A stretch of 64,000 bases of DNA from Candidatus Hermodarchaeota archaeon (GTDB taxonomy: Archaea; Asgardarchaeota; Hermodarchaeia; Hermodarchaeales; Hermodarchaeaceae), in assembly GCA_016840065.1 (NCBI GenBank), contig JAEOTB010000091.1, positions 1 to 64,000 of the forward strand. Reading direction: 5' to 3'. Positions 47,326 to 54,923 of the stretch are shown one piece after another. The notes under the pieces are model-generated. The model saw nothing but the letters and a program-made list of their open reading frames with translations, did not search any database and was not told the origin of the DNA. The stretch's first letter is position 1. Every line of letters starts with the position of its first letter. The position numbers and the translations under genes are program-made.

Positions 47326-49041
47326 TTATGTAACGAGCCAATAGACGCAAGCTCCAAAGCGTGTATACACTTTAGCGACTGATTTGGCGGCGTCAAGAGG
47401 GTCGGAACACTCCAAGGAATACAACTGCTCTGGATAATCACGAAGGAAGTAAGTTTCCATCATTTCGCTCGTTAGGAGAAATACCGAATGATTTTGAGTT
47501 CTAGAATCCTCTCGGATCAGTAGAGGATTAGAAAGATATGTTTCTTGAAGAGGAAGGAAGAGAAACCTATTACTGTCGGCTGGGAACATACCTTGCATCA
47601 TTATCATCAAACGAGTATCAGTAACCACAAATGATTGAGTGTCTGTCATATCTCGGAGCCATAACCCTCCTCCAATTTCAGATTGGTTCATCCCCTCTGG
47701 ATACCATCCCCCTACAGGCTGATATAGGTTATAGATTCCACCAATAGAGAATGTTAGAAGCAAGAGTGTCATAGTAGAGAGGACAAATAGGTTCTGAGAA
47801 CGCCCCCATTTTTGTTGTGTCTCAACTAGTTTGTACAATGCAACAACAGACATGATAGTAACCGGGATAAGTAAAAAGGCGAAATGTCGGTGACCAATGA
47901 AAACCCAGATACTAGAGCGACCAAGAGAAGCATCGATGAGCGTGAGTAAGCCTGTAATCCCGAATGACGCTCCGATGACCAGAAAAGAGAAGGCGACGAG
48001 AAGTCCAGAGATATTCGACTTGCCAATATCCCAAGGCATTGTTCGTAATACCGAAATCGAAAGGGTGAGAAGACACGAAAGGAGACCAAACTTGAAGATA
48101 ATCCAGAGTACGGGGCGATCATACGGATAGAGAAATATCGTGGAGAAGAAGAAACCTATACCTGCGATACAGCCCAAAGTGAAAAATAGTTTTCCAGCCC
48201 AATTTCTTCTAAATAGTTTCAGGACTCGCCATGCCCAATCCCTCGTGACGTATAAAACAGAAACTGAGGTTGCTAAAACTACTAGACTAAGCAGAATAAT
48301 CGGAAAATAGGCTAGGAACTGAGAGTTAGCTGTTGGATTCACTAGTAATAGTAGAGCAAGTGGCACTGCGATTAAAAATACCGAAAGAGGAATGCCTATC
48401 CTATTTATCGACGAATCCTGACTCAAAACTGACCCGACTAAGAGAGCTAAAACAAAAAGAACTGCGAAGTATGTTGTTAAATGATGAATTAGTGGAAGAC
48501 TGCAAACAGCTACTAGGAGAATTATTAACCATTCCTTGCGGGCTCCAGTCCGTTTCACAATAGATAATGCAGCCAAGAAGGTTAGACTTAGAAACACCAT
48601 TGCTAGATGTTGGGGGATCACCGAGTTTGTTTGAGCTGCTACATCAACATCAAGGGAGAAAATGAACATTGCAATGACGCTTGGCCATCCTTTGCCAAGG
48701 AGGTTTCTGAAAAAAGCGAAGAAAGCAGTAAACCCAGCAAGGACAAGTATTGCTACATACAACCTAAATGTATCAATTAGTGGTAAGCCGAGGAAGATGT
48801 GTATGAGGTAAGCTAATGTGTGGAGGAACGGCATGTACAGATTCGAGTAGTACTCACCATAGAAGGGAATACGGTTATTGGTTATGATTACTTCCGTGGC
48901 ACCCATATGAATCCATGAATCATAGCTGTATGAGCCAGGGAAGAGGAGTAACGGGATGATGCGGGGAATTACCCATATCGCGAAGACGCTAGCAATTGCC
49001 AAGCGGTACATCCCGAGTTTCATAGAACCAGATATCGACAT
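47326..49041 (-). CDS. Polytopic membrane protein, GT-C-like (DUF2206/DUF6541-type)
   Basis: YDSWIH after TM1, MPFLHTL, IHHLTT, soluble C-terminal SEIGGGLWL..VVTD domain. Shares these motifs with 6271-7917. Confidence 0.55.
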   Translation of the reverse strand: MSISGSMKLGMYRLAIASVFAIWVIPRIIPLLLFPGSYSYDSWIHMGATEVIITNNRIPFYGEYYSNLYMPFLHTLAYLIHIFLGLPLIDTFRLYVAILVLAGFTAFFAFFRNLLGKGWPSVIAMFIFSLDVDVAAQTNSVIPQHLAMVFLSLTFLAALSIVKRTGARKEWLIILLVAVCSLPLIHHLTTYFAVLFVLALLVGSVLSQDSSINRIGIPLSVFLIAVPLALLLLVNPTANSQFLAYFPIILLSLVVLATSVSVLYVTRDWAWRVLKLFRRNWAGKLFFTLGCIAGIGFFFSTIFLYPYDRPVLWIIFKFGLLSCLLTLSISVLRTMPWDIGKSNISGLLVAFSFLVIGASFGITGLLTLIDASLGRSSIWVFIGHRHFAFLLIPVTIMSVVALYKLVETQQKWGRSQNLFVLSTMTLLLLTFSIGGIYNLYQPVGGWYPEGMNQSEIGGGLWLRDMTDTQSFVVTDTRLMIMMQGMFPADSNRFLFLPLQETYLSNPLLIREDSRTQNHSVFLLTSEMMETYFLRDYPEQLYSLECSDPLDAAKSVAKVYTRFGACVYWLVT

Positions 49042-49142: not shown

Positions 49143-50480
49143 TTGAGTGCATGGCAGGTAATGGTGTTTATTGGAACTCGTCCCGAGATTGTCAAAATGG
49201 CGCCAGTTATCAAGGCATTGGAGACTGACAATCGATTCCAACTAGTTATTGTTGATTCAGGTCAACATTACGACGAACAGCTTAGTTCTGTCTTCTTTGA
49301 AACTTTTCACCTTCCACGAGCTCAATATAGTTTGGACGTGGGGTCGGGAACTCATGCAAGCCAAACAGGAAAGATAATGATAGCTGCAGAGAAAATCATC
49401 ACGGAAACCAAGCCTGATATTATTTTAGTCCAAGGAGATACAAACACTGTTTTGGCAACTGCATTAGCAGCCGTAAAAGCTCAAATTCCATTTGGACACG
49501 TTGAAGCAGGGCTCAGAAGCTTTGATCGAACTATGCCAGAGGAGATTAATCGTATTGTTGCTGATCAATGTTCTGAACTTCATTTCGCTCCAACGCCACT
49601 AGCAGCAAACAATCTTCTTTTCGAAGGATTTGATCCTAGGACGATTCATATTACTGGCAATACTAACATCGATGCGATTCTTCAGTTCAAAGAAATCAGT
49701 TCGAGACAATCAAAAATAATTGACAGGCTAGATTTAGAAGGGACACCGTTTGCAGTCGTCACTATTCACCGCCCTGCAACTGTGGATTATGAAGATGCAT
49801 TAACCTCAACTGTATCTGCATTCCTTAACCTCACTGAATTAAGACTGGTTCTTCCTGTACACCCACGAACCCGAAAAGCGTTAGAACGATTTGGTTTATT
49901 TGAACAACTGGAATCTGCTTCTCATATAATCCTCACTGAACCTCTCGGGTTCATTGATTTCCTTCGCTTGATGTCCGAGGCACGGATTATACTGACTGAT
50001 TCAGGTGGTATACAAGAAGAAGCCTTCACCCTTGGCAAGCCCTGTATTACTTTGCGTGTAAATACAGAGCGACCAGAAAGTCTTCATCTTGGAGCTAACT
50101 TCCTTGTTGGTCGCTCAACGGATCGCATCGTGGAAGTTACTCGTAGTGTTTTAGCAGATTCGACACTAAGCGATCGCATCAACCGTCTCCCTAATCCTTT
50201 TGGGGATGGAAACGCTAGCGAACGAATAGTGAAAGGTGTTGTCCGATTCTGTAGGGAAGGCCGCGCTTTTGTAAAGCCTCATTTATTTGAAACAGGTATG
50301 CGTAATCGAACACTACAGCACGTAAGCAGGGAGTTACAGGGGATGACCATCCTTGAAGCTGAACAGAAAATAGGCGGTAAGATTATGTTGCTCTTCGACG
50401 AGAGTGGTTGTGCAGTTTTTCCAGAAACTGCTAGAAAATTGGCTCTTGGACAACATTTCATTTTAGCTATAGAGAAATAG
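49143..50480 (+). CDS. wecB: Non-hydrolysing UDP-GlcNAc 2-epimerase with C-terminal extra domain (RCK_C/TrkA-C-like)
   Basis: GTRPEIVK, GQHYD, QGDTN, HVEAGLRS, PEEINR, TDSGGIQEE, TERPE, NPFGDG; extension of about 70 aa. Confidence 0.92.
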   Translation: MSAWQVMVFIGTRPEIVKMAPVIKALETDNRFQLVIVDSGQHYDEQLSSVFFETFHLPRAQYSLDVGSGTHASQTGKIMIAAEKIITETKPDIILVQGDTNTVLATALAAVKAQIPFGHVEAGLRSFDRTMPEEINRIVADQCSELHFAPTPLAANNLLFEGFDPRTIHITGNTNIDAILQFKEISSRQSKIIDRLDLEGTPFAVVTIHRPATVDYEDALTSTVSAFLNLTELRLVLPVHPRTRKALERFGLFEQLESASHIILTEPLGFIDFLRLMSEARIILTDSGGIQEEAFTLGKPCITLRVNTERPESLHLGANFLVGRSTDRIVEVTRSVLADSTLSDRINRLPNPFGDGNASERIVKGVVRFCREGRAFVKPHLFETGMRNRTLQHVSRELQGMTILEAEQKIGGKIMLLFDESGCAVFPETARKLALGQHFILAIEK

Positions 50481-50635: not shown

Positions 50636-51166
50636 TTACACACAACCTTGGCTTTTCATGTAATCAAGGATTTTTTGCGCACATTCTTGTGGTGTCTCTT
50701 GCTCAGTATCCACCACAACTTCAGGATTTAATGGATCTTCATAGGGGTCATCAATACCAGTACATTGTTTAACTTCCCCAGCCAGAGCTCGTTTGTATAG
50801 ACCCTTAGGGTCTCGACGTATACACTCTTCGATAGAGGCCTTGACGAAGACTTCGATGAATCGGTCGAGTTGAGACCGTGCATAAGCTCGTGTTACCCTG
50901 TATGGAGAGATAAGACTAACAACTACATTGACACCATTTCGCATCAGCAATTTACTTAGATATATTACACGGCGGTTATGCAGGTTGCGCTCCTCAGCGC
51001 TGAAACCTAGTTTGGGACTTAACTCCTGGCGCACCTCGTCGCCGTCAAGTACTTCGATTTTTTCTCTTCTCTTGCGAAGCTCTGTTTCTATGAGCCGAGC
51101 GATGGTTGTTTTCCCACAACCAGGAAGTCCTGTTAGCCAAACTACACAGCCTAGTCCCATTTTCAT
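50636..51166 (-). CDS. cysC: Adenylylsulfate kinase
   Basis: WLTGLPGCGKTT, LDGD, RDPKGLY, TGIDDPYE. Confidence 0.96.
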   Translation of the reverse strand: MKMGLGCVVWLTGLPGCGKTTIARLIETELRKRREKIEVLDGDEVRQELSPKLGFSAEERNLHNRRVIYLSKLLMRNGVNVVVSLISPYRVTRAYARSQLDRFIEVFVKASIEECIRRDPKGLYKRALAGEVKQCTGIDDPYEDPLNPEVVVDTEQETPQECAQKILDYMKSQGCV

Positions 51167-52548
51167 TTCACCTTGATGATTTTTCCTTCCATGCCTTTTG
51201 GCACTTTCAGACCCATAGCATGCAGGATAGTTGGTGCTACATCATAGAGCGTTATATTCTGAATTATACCTCCTACCTTATGTTTAGGGTCCCAGAGAAT
51301 GAATATACCATCCCAGTCATGCACTGCATCATCGGGTCCTGTGTCATTCTCTGAGAGATGGAGGCAGTTGTGTCCGAGTGTGCCAGTTGAGCGATAAGAT
51401 AGGTCATCGAAATAAACCATTAAATCAGGAGGATTCCCCTTTACAACTCCTCCATATAACTCGGCAGGTATGTAAACTTTAGTATCCAGAGCCTCTCCAT
51501 TAACCCCTCGAATTTGTCGCAGTTTCTCCGATACCTCGCTGCGGATTCTCTCGAAATCCTTCGAATCTATAACACCTGTTTCTTCGCGCCCTTTCACATT
51601 GAAAAAAACGCGTGCGTAATACCCACCCCAACCCCATGCAGTGGTATTCTCCCAGTCAATGTCAGCCTCATCGAGACGTACCTGTTTTATGGGGTGTGCC
51701 TTAAGTTTGAGGTATCCTTCTCGCACAAGCCACTCGTTGATACAGATAACACCTTTCATAGGCTTGGCACCATGATCTGATACAACAATGACTACCGTGT
51801 CATCATCAATAATCTCCAAAAGCTCACCAATCTTGCCATCAAGATACTGATAATAATCTGAAAATAGGGATTCATACTTGCTGCCAGGCTCGTGAAGATG
51901 GTGCGTTTTATCGTAATATTTCCAAAAACCATGATGAAGCCTATCAGGACCCATCTCAACAAACATGAAAAAGTCCCAAGGCTTACTCTTCATGAGATAC
52001 GAGACTACTTTGAACCGGTTTTCGGTCAGAGCGTACAAATCCTTTAGTAAACGATCCTTGTCATCTGTACGAAACCCCTTTACATCCAGCAAATACCCGC
52101 CCAATTTGTCTATCTCTTCCTTTAAACTAGGGGGTGATGTATATTGACTTTTTATAGAAGGAGCAAGAAAACCTGAAATTGATAAACCTGTTACACATGG
52201 CGGCGGGTAGGAGGGAGGAACACCCACAATGCAGACATACTTGCCTCTCTTTGAGAGGATATCCCAAACCGCAAGCTCTTTGACATCATATGAGGTAGCG
52301 ATGTTGAACTCTGTATAGGAATTGCCACTTCGATGTCGGAAGCCGTAGATACCTAGCTGACCAGGAGACTGCCCAGTACTCATTACAACCCAGGCCGGAC
52401 ATGTGATTGGAGGATTTGAACTACGCATCCGTCCATAGATTCCTTCTTCACGCAGCCTCGTAAGATTCGGCATCACATTGGCTAGTTGGTCGAAGACCAA
52501 TTCTGGAGCTGCACAGTCCAAACCAATCACTAATACTTTACGAGGCAC
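51163..52548 (-). CDS. Alkaline-phosphatase superfamily enzyme (NPP/phosphodiesterase-type, COG3379-like), cytoplasmic
   Basis: IGLDCA, PPITCPAW (Thr nucleophile position), PDRLHH, VSDHG, VHDWDG, DVAPTIL; no signal peptide. Stop overlaps the cysC start (ATGA). Confidence 0.85.
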   Translation of the reverse strand: MPRKVLVIGLDCAAPELVFDQLANVMPNLTRLREEGIYGRMRSSNPPITCPAWVVMSTGQSPGQLGIYGFRHRSGNSYTEFNIATSYDVKELAVWDILSKRGKYVCIVGVPPSYPPPCVTGLSISGFLAPSIKSQYTSPPSLKEEIDKLGGYLLDVKGFRTDDKDRLLKDLYALTENRFKVVSYLMKSKPWDFFMFVEMGPDRLHHGFWKYYDKTHHLHEPGSKYESLFSDYYQYLDGKIGELLEIIDDDTVVIVVSDHGAKPMKGVICINEWLVREGYLKLKAHPIKQVRLDEADIDWENTTAWGWGGYYARVFFNVKGREETGVIDSKDFERIRSEVSEKLRQIRGVNGEALDTKVYIPAELYGGVVKGNPPDLMVYFDDLSYRSTGTLGHNCLHLSENDTGPDDAVHDWDGIFILWDPKHKVGGIIQNITLYDVAPTILHAMGLKVPKGMEGKIIKVK

Positions 52549-52563
52549 TGCAACTTCACCAAA

Positions 52564-53703
52564 TCATGAAACGAAAGGCTCAGGGTGACTTGCAATCATT
52601 TCTGCAACCTCCCGTCTCATAAGAGACTCAGGTGGATTTCGACCTTCTTGGAAATATCTGCGAATCTCCGTTCCACTGAAATCAATATGATTACTTTTGG
52701 GATGAGGGCAAGTCTTCTCGTTAGCGATACTCCTACATTTTGTACAATAGAAGAATGATTTGAAGAGTAGCGGGATAATCTCAAGATCGGGAAACTTATC
52801 GAAGATTTCCTGTGCTGCAAGGGGATGATAGAATTTTCCAACACCCGCATGATCCCTTCCCACAATGAAATGAGTGCACCCAAAATTTTTACGCATTATA
52901 GCGTGATGAATGGCTTCACGGGGTCCAGCGTAATACATTGGTGAGCGGAGAATACTGAGGACACAATTTTCTCGGAGGAAATATGTTTTCATTAAAGTGC
53001 GGTATGCATCAAGGATAACTTCATCGCGGAAATCACCTTGTTTCTTTGGTCCTATTAGAGGGTTGATAAAAATCCCGTCAACAAAGGTTAATGCTGTTTT
53101 TTTAACATATTCATGACCGAGATGTGGTGGATTTCTAGTTTGAAATGCTACTATTGTCCTCCACCTTTTTGTTTTAAACAAAATCCTAGTATCTAATGGA
53201 TACAGCGTTACTTCTTCGAAATTCAAAGGCGGGGAGGAGATTACAGAGAGTTTCCCACCTAGTAGGGTCTTCTCCATGGTATGAGTCCTAGCTACACCAG
53301 GGTGCTCCGAGTCCTGTGTGCCAAACACTTGCTGAGAGAAATACCTTTTGTCAAGCGTGAATTTGTCTTCAACAAGTAGAACAGCAACTGGAGCACCATC
53401 TAGACACAGAACTACTTCGTCGTCAACCGAGAAATCGTTATCTTGATTGACATCGAATACGATCGGTATGGTCCACGGAACATCAGAGAGCAAACGCATG
53501 TCGTCTAACACATTGTTGGTCTCGTCTTCTGTCATGAACCCAGTTAAAGGGCTGAGAACGCCATGCCCGATATTCTGAACTATATCAGTCAATGTTGAGG
53601 ATATGTCAATGGTCTGATATTCGCTGATTTGTACCTTCAGTTTGTCAGAATCTTTGTCGGATAGCAACCGAGAAACAAGGTGACCGCCATGTGCTTGGTT
53701 CAT
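52564..53703 (-). CDS. sat: Sulfate adenylyltransferase (ATP sulfurylase)
   Basis: HGGHLV, SPLTGFM, WTIPI, FQTRNPPHLGHE, YAGPREA, GRDHAGVG, SGTEIR. Confidence 0.96.
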   Translation of the reverse strand: MNQAHGGHLVSRLLSDKDSDKLKVQISEYQTIDISSTLTDIVQNIGHGVLSPLTGFMTEDETNNVLDDMRLLSDVPWTIPIVFDVNQDNDFSVDDEVVLCLDGAPVAVLLVEDKFTLDKRYFSQQVFGTQDSEHPGVARTHTMEKTLLGGKLSVISSPPLNFEEVTLYPLDTRILFKTKRWRTIVAFQTRNPPHLGHEYVKKTALTFVDGIFINPLIGPKKQGDFRDEVILDAYRTLMKTYFLRENCVLSILRSPMYYAGPREAIHHAIMRKNFGCTHFIVGRDHAGVGKFYHPLAAQEIFDKFPDLEIIPLLFKSFFYCTKCRSIANEKTCPHPKSNHIDFSGTEIRRYFQEGRNPPESLMRREVAEMIASHPEPFVS

Positions 53704-53716
53704 TCTCTTCCCCCAA

Positions 53717-53950
53717 TCAATCCAAATATCCTAGGGCCCGAAGGCGCGCTTTAATGCGTTTTTCATCTTCGGAAGAGAAGGCCTTTTCAGTAGATTGCTG
53801 GGATTCTTCTGCGAAGATTTCTCGAAGAACATAAGTAACGTAATCGGAAACAGAGGAGAAGCCTGTGTCTTCGATACGCGCTTTGATTTTTCCAAAAAGG
53901 GTCTTTGGGATAGAGACGGTCGTGTATTTGCGTTTGGATTTAGGACTCAT
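53717..53950 (-). CDS. Ribbon-helix-helix (CopG/NikR-like) regulator with C-terminal RLRALGY tail
   Basis: YTTVSIP beta-ribbon, GFSSVSDYVTYVLRE helix, tail FSSEDEKRIKARLRALGYLD; AGGAG SD; first gene of the sat operon. Confidence 0.85.
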   Translation of the reverse strand: MSPKSKRKYTTVSIPKTLFGKIKARIEDTGFSSVSDYVTYVLREIFAEESQQSTEKAFSSEDEKRIKARLRALGYLD

Positions 53951-53985
53951 TGACTTGTTCTCCTTTTAATTTTGATAGATGGTTA

Positions 53986-54022
53986 TTAATGCCAGGGCAT
54001 TAAATTTAATGTTATGACATTA
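53986..54022. promoter_or_regulatory. Tandem palindromic operator candidate (TAATG-N6-CATTA x2) flanking a TATA-like box
   Basis: ttaatgcc-ag-ggcattaa (53986-54003) and taatgt-tatg-acatta (54007-54022). Centres are 20 bp apart, with TTAAATTTAA between/overlapping them. Confidence 0.65.
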
Positions 54023-54125: not shown

Positions 54126-54923
54126 TTAGAACCAGGAGAATAGAGCTATTGCCTTAATGAGAGTTAATGCTCCTAGAAAGATTGTGGCTACACCGATTAT
54201 CCTAGACTGTTGTCTTCCTTCGGTACGCTTGACAAAATAACTACCTAGAGGTGCAGCGATAACTGCACCCCCAAAAAGGAAAATTGTATAGAAAATAAAA
54301 TAAACATCGAAAATCAATCGACCTAGTAAAATGTATAATGTCACGGCAGTTATACTCACTACTGCTTTAGAGACTGTTGTACAGCCAATCGATTGTGAAG
54401 CTTCTCTTCCTGAGAGAATCTGGCCCCCCGCCACTAGTGGAGTGTAACCCCCACCAGTCAAACCCTTATTAATGGCAGCAACCCCGCCAAGAACAACGAT
54501 TTTTCTCCACGAGAAGGCTATTTTGAATTCAACAATAACTAGTATACCCAGCAATAGAACTGTAAGCCCAACATAGGCTTGGATAAGAATAGGAGTAATA
54601 CTAACAAGCGTGTAGAATAATAGAATAGCAGTTACTGCCCCTATCATCCCTGAGATAGAAAGCGCAATCACCATTTTTGAATCGTCGGAGAAGGAGAAAT
54701 TTACATTGCCATGAACTTGAAAGGCAATGGCAGTAGCAATTGATGCACCAATTGAGGAAAATAGAATTGCTGGCACCACTTCTATTACTGGTAAGTTAAG
54801 TAGAATTAATACAGGGGTCAAGAATGTGCCATATCCAAATCCAAATACGGCATCAAGAAATTCAGCTACAAACCCGAGAATGAATAGTAACAGTAGTAGA
54901 TTAAGACCTCCGTCCATTACCAT
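54126..54923 (-). CDS. TauE/SafE-family (TSUP) sulfur-oxyanion transporter
   Basis: AEFLDAVFGFGYGTFLTP, NKGLTGGGY, APLG; about 8 TM. Confidence 0.85.
   Translation of the reverse strand: MVMDGGLNLLLLLFILGFVAEFLDAVFGFGYGTFLTPVLILLNLPVIEVVPAILFSSIGASIATAIAFQVHGNVNFSFSDDSKMVIALSISGMIGAVTAILLFYTLVSITPILIQAYVGLTVLLLGILVIVEFKIAFSWRKIVVLGGVAAINKGLTGGGYTPLVAGGQILSGREASQSIGCTTVSKAVVSITAVTLYILLGRLIFDVYFIFYTIFLFGGAVIAAPLGSYFVKRTEGRQQSRIIGVATIFLGALTLIKAIALFSWF

Follow-up and report, generated by a model that had tools for sequence, protein, structure and literature searches.

What does an archaeon do with an operon that makes 3′-phosphoadenylyl sulfate (PAPS) inside a glycan locus where no sulfotransferase gene stands beside it? 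The question is raised by a stretch of 64,000 nucleotides (nt) from Candidatus Hermodarchaeota archaeon (contig JAEOTB010000091.1, positions 1 to 64,000; hereafter "the window", contig C78 in our numbering), in which a small ribbon-helix-helix (RHH) regulator is followed by an ATP sulfurylase (Sat), an enzyme of the alkaline phosphatase (AlkP) superfamily and an adenylyl-sulfate (APS) kinase (CysC), with the gene of a TauE-family transporter upstream. The initial annotation, made from the sequence alone, saw in the AlkP enzyme a hidden sulfotransferase or PAPS-processing enzyme, and proposed that a C-terminal helix carried by the regulator, the "LGY tail", is supplied in trans to this tail-less enzyme. 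We come to a different reading, to which we give a probability of about 0.6: the locus is a sulfate-activation cassette of a published kind, its AlkP enzyme would be a pyrophosphatase with the fold of the nucleotide pyrophosphatase/phosphodiesterase (NPP) family, the PAPS would go to sulfotransferases encoded elsewhere, and the RHH protein would repress the operon and end in a portable tail.

The source assembly (2.59 Mb in 131 contigs) is 84% complete, so that the absence of a gene from it is not proof. The features under discussion, in window coordinates, are the following.

54126..54923, minus strand: TauE/SafE-family anion transporter (PF01925, E 5.3e-20)
53987..54022, no strand assigned: twin 16-bp palindromes, probable RHH operator (sequence reading and footprint in relatives)
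53717..53950, minus strand: CopG-like RHH regulator of 77 amino acids (aa) (homologues; weak NikR N-terminal match)
53720..53779, minus strand: coding region of the C-terminal LGY tail, RHH residues 58-77 (homologue ends, column conservation and tail profile)
52564..53703, minus strand: Sat, sulfate adenylyltransferase (ATP sulfurylase) (PUA_2 and ATP-sulfurylase domains, PF14306 and PF01747, E 3.5e-84; NF003166, 469 bits for a cut-off of 387)
51163..52548, minus strand: predicted NPP-type AlkP-superfamily enzyme, 461 aa (PF01663, E 2.8e-48)
50636..51166, minus strand: CysC, APS kinase (PF01583, E 4e-55; TIGR00455, 207.9 bits for a cut-off of 138.7)

A Further Member of a Published Cluster

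The operon can be called tight, since only 13 nt separate RHH from Sat and 15 nt separate Sat from AlkP, while the AlkP stop overlaps the CysC start by 4 nt; TauE is a separate gene on the same strand, located upstream of the operon promoter with 175 nt between it and RHH. Positions of the open reading frames (ORFs) and domain matches agree here with the initial annotation, which had described a tight RHH-Sat-AlkP-CysC operon with TauE upstream inside a glycan island; indeed, the neighbourhood contains three family 4 glycosyltransferases (GT4), WecB, a polysaccharide deacetylase and a GNAT protein.

The locus adds one more member to a gene cluster for sulfate activation (PAPS synthesis) that has been published for archaea. 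Jin et al. 2021 (PMC8268124, section 2.1, Fig. 1) described a conserved archaeal cluster made of copG, ATP sulfurylase, a DHH-family phosphatase of 3′-phosphoadenosine 5′-phosphate (PAP or pAp; the "pApase"), a type I phosphodiesterase/NPP, APS kinase and tauE. In Pyrococcus yayanosii, these are pych_17520 (copG), pych_17530 (ATP sulfurylase), pych_17540 (DHH pApase), pych_17550 (type I phosphodiesterase/nucleotide pyrophosphatase, stated to degrade inorganic pyrophosphate, PPi) and pych_17560 (APS kinase), with tauE adjoining, and the Ferroglobus example is ferp_2428-2433 (PMC8268124). For Thermococcus onnurineus, section 2.6.4 of PMC4463584, citing Lee et al. 2009, gives TON_1704 as APS kinase, TON_1705 as pyrophosphatase, TON_1706 as PAP phosphatase and TON_1707 as ATP sulfurylase. 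The DHH pAp phosphatase is optional, and the cluster is known from Pyrococcus, Thermococcus, Ferroglobus and others. Since the operon belongs to this cluster, a "PAPS operon without sulfotransferase" is not a puzzle specific to the present genome.

We found the gene order RHH, Sat, DHH, PF01663, APS kinase, TauE in Ferroglobus placidus (locus L004) and in a Thermococcus metagenome-assembled genome (MAG), and TauE lies inside or next to the cassette in Ferroglobus, in Thermococcus and in several Asgard loci. Named sources of the 989 homologues of the RHH protein include Ferroglobus, Archaeoglobus, Thermococcus, Bathyarchaeia, Hodarchaeota and Hermodarchaeota. For a census of neighbouring genes, 80 loci were anchored on the AlkP orthologue; they span Thermococci, Methanocaldococcus, Archaeoglobi, Bathyarchaeia and Promethearchaeota, as well as Thermofilaceae, DPANN, Aminicenantes, Eubacteriales and Acidobacteriota. 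A tailed RHH stands at the head of the cassette in 66 of them, and 10 of the other 14 loci end at a contig edge. The cassette also occurs without AlkP, either as RHH-Sat-CysC (genomes G030, G185, G182 and G158) or as RHH-Sat-DHH-CysC (G041, G058 and G009), and it occurs without Sat in the operon, RHH being then directly followed by AlkP and CysC (L097, L099, L103, L110 and L121 in Archaeoglobi; L153 and L154 in bacteria). CysC was kept in all the sulfate-activation cassette variants examined.

The AlkP-Fold Enzyme as a Candidate Pyrophosphatase

The AlkP protein matches PF01663 over residues 5-394 with 165.7 bits (cut-off 23); its match to the Sulfatase family (PF00884) is only partial (28.9 bits over the 73 residues 193-265), and the Pfam scan gave no match to a Sulfotransfer domain (PF00685 or PF13469). 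In an alignment of 125 sequences, the residues D11, D202, H206, D258, H259 and H410 never vary and T49 is conserved in at least 90%, a set that we take, by analogy with the Xanthomonas enzyme Xac NPP, to be the complete two-metal site of an NPP with its Thr nucleophile. The AlphaFold2 model computed from the same alignment (pLDDT 95.9) finds its best Foldseek matches in ENPP1/3, Xac NPP, ENPP5/6 and PhnA (E 1e-15 to 4e-18, TMq 0.55-0.63, 14-16% identity), and sulfatases are not at the top of the ranking; searches of PDB sequences with the AlkP protein, the RHH protein and the tail profile returned no solved relative. Judged by family matches and predicted fold, the enzyme thus belongs to the NPP-type branch of the AlkP superfamily and is not sulfatase-like.

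The family is uniform in length: all 118 full-length homologues that we inspected, of about 460 aa, end where the catalytic domain ends. The five closest are 73-82% identical to the window protein and the rest 54-59%, with Bathyarchaeia, Verstraetearchaeota and Baldrarchaeia among their lineages; identity to the Ferroglobus member is 48% and to the syntenic protein of the Thermococcus MAG 50%. Members in Asgard archaea and in bacteria are 51-58% identical to the Thermococcus one. In the metagenomic protein P0160 (689 aa), the cassette AlkP enzyme and an APS kinase domain are naturally fused.

In the cluster, the window enzyme occupies the position of TON_1705 and PYCH_17550, between sat, or DHH where there is one, and cysC. 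TON_1705 is an inorganic pyrophosphatase (PPase) according to the relevant passages of PMC4463584 and PMC8268124 and to Table 1 of PMC9653972, all of which cite Lee 2009 (J Bacteriol 191:3415); the same table, after its reference 31, gives a pH optimum of 9.5, a kcat of 2.1 per s and a Km of 18.8 µM. A dedicated PPase makes biochemical sense because PPi removal limits ATP sulfurylase: the archaeal enzyme needs rapid removal of PPi, which was the rate-limiting step in the assay of Jespersen et al. 2023 (PMC10322725). A profile search for a family I PPase (PF00719) found none in the source assembly, of the completeness given above. By analogy with its cluster counterpart, the most likely role of the AlkP enzyme is to remove PPi during sulfate activation.

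The Fate of PAPS

The pathway could then run as follows. Sat would make APS and PPi; the NPP-fold enzyme, with the activity reported for TON_1705, would hydrolyse PPi and so pull the unfavourable Sat reaction; CysC would phosphorylate APS to PAPS; and TauE would probably serve to transport a sulfur oxyanion. As for the PAPS, its most likely users are sulfotransferases with genes outside the locus, which would sulfate glycans, probably those made by the surrounding glycosylation island.

Whole-assembly searches agreed with the initial annotation, which had recognised no classical sulfotransferase, PAPS reductase or sulfite reductase in the window: Sulfotransfer_1/_3, PAPS_reduct and NIR_SIR gave no match there. 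At least one canonical Sulfotransfer_1 gene lies on another contig (C76:7482-8072, L002:1369-2091; PF00685, 40.6 bits) and a PAPS_reduct protein on a third. The former, the sole Sulfotransfer_1/_3 match in the genome, is cut at the contig end, and its N-terminal PAPS-binding part is absent from the assembly; it adjoins a repeat-rich protein of 421 aa without Pfam match. The latter is the only PAPS_reduct match (contig C36, L003:826-2811), a 661-aa protein with PUA and PAPS_reduct domains and a C-terminal 4Fe-4S ferredoxin-type motif. As PAPS_reduct-family proteins were matched in 14 of 14 control genomes, such a match is unspecific for sulfate reduction. Profile searches of the 84%-complete assembly found neither an NIR_SIR sulfite reductase nor a Sulfatase (PF00884).

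In the relative G030, an AlkP-free RHH-Sat-CysC cassette has as direct neighbours a methyltransferase, a sulfatase-family gene and two canonical sulfotransferases (PF13469/PF00685). At a distance of 15-20 kb, the cassettes of Methanocaldococcus sp. 28A and of a Thermococcus MAG are each accompanied by a canonical sulfotransferase gene. These canonical sulfotransferases and sulfatase-like enzymes beside the cassette tie it to glycan sulfation, not to assimilation.

The RHH Regulator and Its Probable Operator

The 77-aa regulator is laid out as a basic N-terminus, a probable RHH core, an acidic linker and a C-terminal helix. No Pfam RHH model scores above its cut-off and the NikR N-terminal match is weak (E 0.001); homologues are named CopG or Arc/MetJ-type RHH in the source records, and P0241, one of the proteins found with the tail profile described below, matches RHH_1. 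Between 37 and 72 bp upstream of the RHH start, two palindromes of the form TAATGY-N4-RCATTA (54022-54007 and 54002-53987) stand 4 bp apart and 20 bp from centre to centre, a spacing that places them on the same face of the helix. Two genomes of the same family (L067 and L068) conserve the half-sites with different N4 spacers, the pair lying directly downstream of a TATA-like box, and other lineages carry TAATTA-type repeats at the operator position. From this anatomy and this phylogenetic footprint, we infer that the RHH protein is the repressor of the operon, two dimers of which would bind the twin palindromes and block its own promoter. No toxin gene adjoins RHH, as one would for an RHH type II antitoxin; the genes downstream are sat, the NPP-type gene and cysC.

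A tailed RHH also exists apart from the cassette. An orphan copy in G038 (L040:8361-8588; contig C1 of that genome, at about 530.4 kb), 67% identical to the window protein, heads ABC-ATPase-like, CobW-like and FeS-motif genes, a set with no evident link to sulfate activation.

A Conserved C-Terminal Module

The initial annotation had also noticed that the RHH protein ends in the LGY tail and had started from the premise that many sulfatase- or NPP-like AlkP proteins bear the same tail; both observations proved sound. The RHH gene is the sole ORF of at least 60 aa with an LGY-type end in the 2.59-Mb assembly. Among the best 120 RHH homologues, all 120 close with an acidic linker and a helix whose last residues are LRALGY and two more (RLRALGY in 119), and mean column conservation is 0.84 in the tail and 0.83 in the DNA-binding part, for 0.59 in the linker. 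The helix, as read from the sequence, presents a narrow hydrophobic i, i+4, i+7 stripe and a terminal Gly cap.

A 32-residue tail profile (A1), searched against 1.84 billion representative proteins, matched 342 of them at E ≤ 1e-3. Among the best 150 of these 342, 128 are no longer than 100 aa, with many full-length RHH proteins of quite different N-termini and many short fragments; of the 22 longer ones (above 100 aa), all the enzymes that could be assigned belong to the AlkP superfamily. The tailed enzymes include Sulfatase-family proteins (P0296, 429 aa, and the sulfatase fragment P0308), PF01663 (Phosphodiest) proteins (P0322, 555 aa, from a bacterial MAG, and P0323, 500 aa) and P0372, which bears the JGI name AlkP superfamily; in P0264, the PglZ match is weak and sub-threshold. 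Tandem double tails exist as well (e.g., P0349 and P0241). The tailed enzymes sit in glycan loci with GT2, PMT_2, flippase, epimerase and ABC transporter genes, and no RHH gene stands beside them in the glycan loci that we inspected. A word search for longer tail-bearing proteins in a 5.8-billion-protein set, made with RHH residues 38-77, scored nothing, and a full-text literature search for the core motif brought up no paper describing the tail. On the evidence of sequence comparison, the tail is a real and conserved module common to RHH regulators and AlkP-superfamily enzymes of glycan loci, which spans hundreds of the former in archaea and some bacteria.

Resemblances beyond this set did not hold. 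Many cassette APS kinases end in a helix followed by LGYL (e.g., L004:11702-12226), as do the solved structures 8a8h and 7yq0, and none of these ends matches the tail profile; we rejected them as tail homologues, and their LGYL end may be a helix-cap resemblance. The window CysC (50636-51166) ends instead in SQGCV. Tailed PF01663 paralogues adjoin GT2/GT4 genes in a genome of the same genus (L062:2992-7044, G022) and in one of the same family (L063:4289-11244, G011), and stand there beside very large TPR proteins (796 aa, and 1138 aa with a CHAT domain). We considered TPR proteins as receptors of the tail and discarded them, as they adjoin tailed paralogues in the window's family and not in other lineages.

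Does the Tail Serve the Tail-Less AlkP Enzyme?

As the initial annotation had noted, the AlkP enzyme lacks the tail; it stops at the end of its catalytic domain, precisely where tailed paralogues extend by a 45-50-aa linker and the tail. The orthologue bears the tail in none of the 118 homologues and at none of the 80 loci; because this orthologous family is never tailed, nothing has "moved" to the regulator, and the tail appears to belong to the RHH family rather than to be a piece lost by the enzyme.

We then have to ask how closely the two genes are associated. A sample of 201 genomes from the window's phylum yielded RHH in 73, the tail in 68 and the AlkP orthologue in about 56 (hand reading), usually within 3 kb of RHH; this frequent spacing, together with the 66 loci out of 80, indicates that the two genes usually travel together. 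The best evidence for a functional link between them comes from divergent extra RHH-LGY copies that adjoin tail-less AlkP paralogues (L041, L042, L053 and L054), one of them without sat or cysC nearby. RHH-LGY cassettes also exist without AlkP. In G158, a 99%-complete genome, RHH-LGY-Sat-CysC is present and neither PF01663 nor PF00884 finds a match anywhere, and in family f9 the tail is unchanged whether the cassette includes AlkP (L047, L048 and L057) or not (L069-L072). PF01663 paralogues with a terminal tail (528-541 aa) coexist with tailed RHH proteins in G022, G079, G011 and G114, all from the window's genus and family; such coexistence in sister genomes ruled out a complementary distribution in which the tail would be either split off or fused. 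The in-trans supply of the tail to the AlkP enzyme, weakened by these comparisons, is not supported as it was stated.

Weighing the Alternatives

Several observations weigh against the reading that we prefer. TON_1705 has a low kcat compared with other PPases, and with AlkP-fold enzymes being promiscuous, the physiological substrate is perhaps not PPi; orthology with TON_1705 is judged from synteny and from 50% identity to the Thermococcus MAG protein; Archaeoglobi and some bacteria keep RHH-AlkP-CysC with no Sat in the cassette; RHH binding at the palindromes is a prediction; the genome is 84% complete; and three of five near-complete cassette genomes (G038, G146 and G201) have no Sulfotransfer_1/_3 match. 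One may wonder whether the PAPS consumer of several cassette-bearing archaea is the NPP-fold enzyme itself, acting as a non-canonical sulfotransferase through its Thr nucleophile, with PPase activity in vitro as a side reaction. Sulfatase-like members of the AlkP superfamily, Agl30/Agl31, do act as N-glycan sulfotransferases (PMC11980604); in P. yayanosii, Jin 2021 saw neither a sulfotransferase nor an enzyme that reduces sulfite (PMC8268124, section 3.3); and the three genomes without Sulfotransfer match, the DHH pAp phosphatase of some cassettes (which implies PAP production), the Sat-less AlkP-CysC pairs of Archaeoglobi and the low kcat tabulated in PMC9653972 would all fit. However, the PPase activity is reported, in that table, with a micromolar Km; fold and Pfam family are those of NPP and not of sulfatases; identities of 55-59% across phyla suggest one invariant small substrate, the family being too uniform for the recognition of lineage-specific glycans; and canonical sulfotransferases adjoin the AlkP-free cassette of G030, lie 15-20 kb from the cassette in two genomes and have a representative in the source genome. 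We therefore set aside the hidden sulfotransferase or PAPS processor of the initial annotation as improbable. It is more doubtful still that PAPS is made for assimilation and reduced by the PUA/PAPS-reductase-like/4Fe-4S protein of C36: this 661-aa protein combines the expected domains with a ferredoxin-type motif, and the cluster is called "assimilatory" in PMC8268124 and PMC4463584, but the 84%-complete assembly yielded no NIR_SIR sulfite reductase, PAPS_reduct matches turn up in every control genome, and the operon is surrounded by glycan genes and, in relatives, has sulfotransferases beside it. Glycan sulfation by separately encoded sulfotransferases remains our preferred fate for PAPS.

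As for the tail, we give about equal odds to two roles: self-association, which would make operator binding cooperative, and docking to a protein of the sulfation pathway. Self-association would make it an oligomerisation helix as in Mnt, joining two RHH dimers on the twin operators, with AlkP-fold enzymes oligomerising likewise. This is a tentative possibility, consistent with palindromes 20 bp apart on one DNA face in a pattern that relatives conserve, with the narrow hydrophobic stripe and its Gly cap, with the retention of the tail regardless of neighbour genes and with the tandem double tails; against it, a long, acidic and poorly conserved linker is what one would rather expect of a docking peptide on a tether than of a rigid assembly domain, and this role accounts neither for the near-invariance of the tail across phyla nor for its restriction to AlkP-fold enzymes. 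In one form of docking, the RHH tail would bind in trans to the tail-less AlkP, or to AlkP-fold enzymes generally, and couple enzyme state to repression, in a manner resembling the binding of a toxin by the tail of its RHH antitoxin. Every assignable enzyme among the 22 longer tail matches being of the AlkP superfamily, the divergent RHH-LGY paralogues beside tail-less AlkP paralogues and a tail as conserved as the DNA-binding domain speak for it; we nonetheless hold it to be unlikely, given the unchanged tail of family f9 with or without cassette AlkP, the genome G158 with its RHH-LGY-Sat-CysC and no PF01663/PF00884 match, the orphan tailed RHH at the head of ABC-ATPase, CobW and FeS genes, the coexistence of tailed AlkP paralogues with tailed RHH in the window's genus and family, and PPase kinetics that Table 1 of PMC9653972 lists for TON_1705 by itself. 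In another form, which we put forward as a speculation with the odds against it, the tail would serve the sulfation machinery as a portable docking peptide, a helix of about 20 residues on a flexible acidic linker that tethers the repressor and AlkP-fold glycan-modifying enzymes to a common partner. This partner could be the catalytic cleft of an AlkP-fold enzyme or the APS kinase, a candidate because it is present in every cassette variant examined. If this were true, the level of free partner would set the transcription of the PAPS operon, a new archaeal feedback from enzyme to repressor. Whichever holds, we would see in the tail a helix that is portable, borne by an acidic linker and found as well at the end of AlkP-superfamily enzymes from glycan loci, and finding its partner would reveal how PAPS operons are controlled.

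Other Genes Around the Operon

Two neighbouring genes drew our attention for other reasons. WecB (UDP-GlcNAc 2-epimerase; window 49143-50480, 445 aa) has a Pfam domain that extends to residue 364, followed by about 80 C-terminal residues. Between a GT4 gene and WecB, window positions 47326-49041 encode a multi-pass membrane protein of 571 aa without Pfam match.

Comparison with Known Systems

The closest known systems are the clusters of Thermococcus onnurineus (TON_1704-1707), Pyrococcus yayanosii (PYCH_17520-17570) and Ferroglobus (ferp_2428-2433), which the window resembles in gene families, in gene order and in having tauE nearby. In contrast to them, the window has sat followed directly by the NPP gene, without a DHH pAp phosphatase in between (contig C81 carries one DHH gene), its TauE is upstream and not downstream, and its cassette is inside a glycosylation island.

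With the NPP/ENPP family (Xanthomonas NPP and ENPP1/3) and the phosphonoacetate hydrolase PhnA, the window AlkP enzyme appears to share the fold, the two-metal site and the Thr nucleophile. It differs from them by an identity of 14-16%, by about 80 extra residues in the form of beta-rich insertions and by being cytoplasmic; moreover, the reported substrate of its cluster counterpart is PPi and not a nucleotide.

C-terminal extensions on RHH repressors are familiar from the tetramerisation helix of Mnt and from the antitoxins ParD, RelB and CcdA with their partner-binding tails. Like these, the window RHH protein joins a small, probably RHH-type DNA-binding domain to a short C-terminal helix, in what would be an autoregulated operon with tandem operators; unlike the antitoxins, it has no toxin partner, and its tail is borne by a long acidic linker. 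We know of no case, for Mnt or for the antitoxins, of a tail common to AlkP-fold enzymes.

Finally, Agl30/Agl31 of Halobacterium salinarum also belong to the AlkP superfamily and come from an archaeal N-glycosylation gene cluster, and their role as N-glycan sulfotransferases has been shown genetically and heterologously (PMC11980604). They are sulfatase-like, sulfatases being their closest solved structures, whereas the window enzyme is NPP-like by its predicted fold; the tailed sulfatase and PF01663 paralogues found in the glycan loci of relatives are nearer to Agl30/31 than the window enzyme is.

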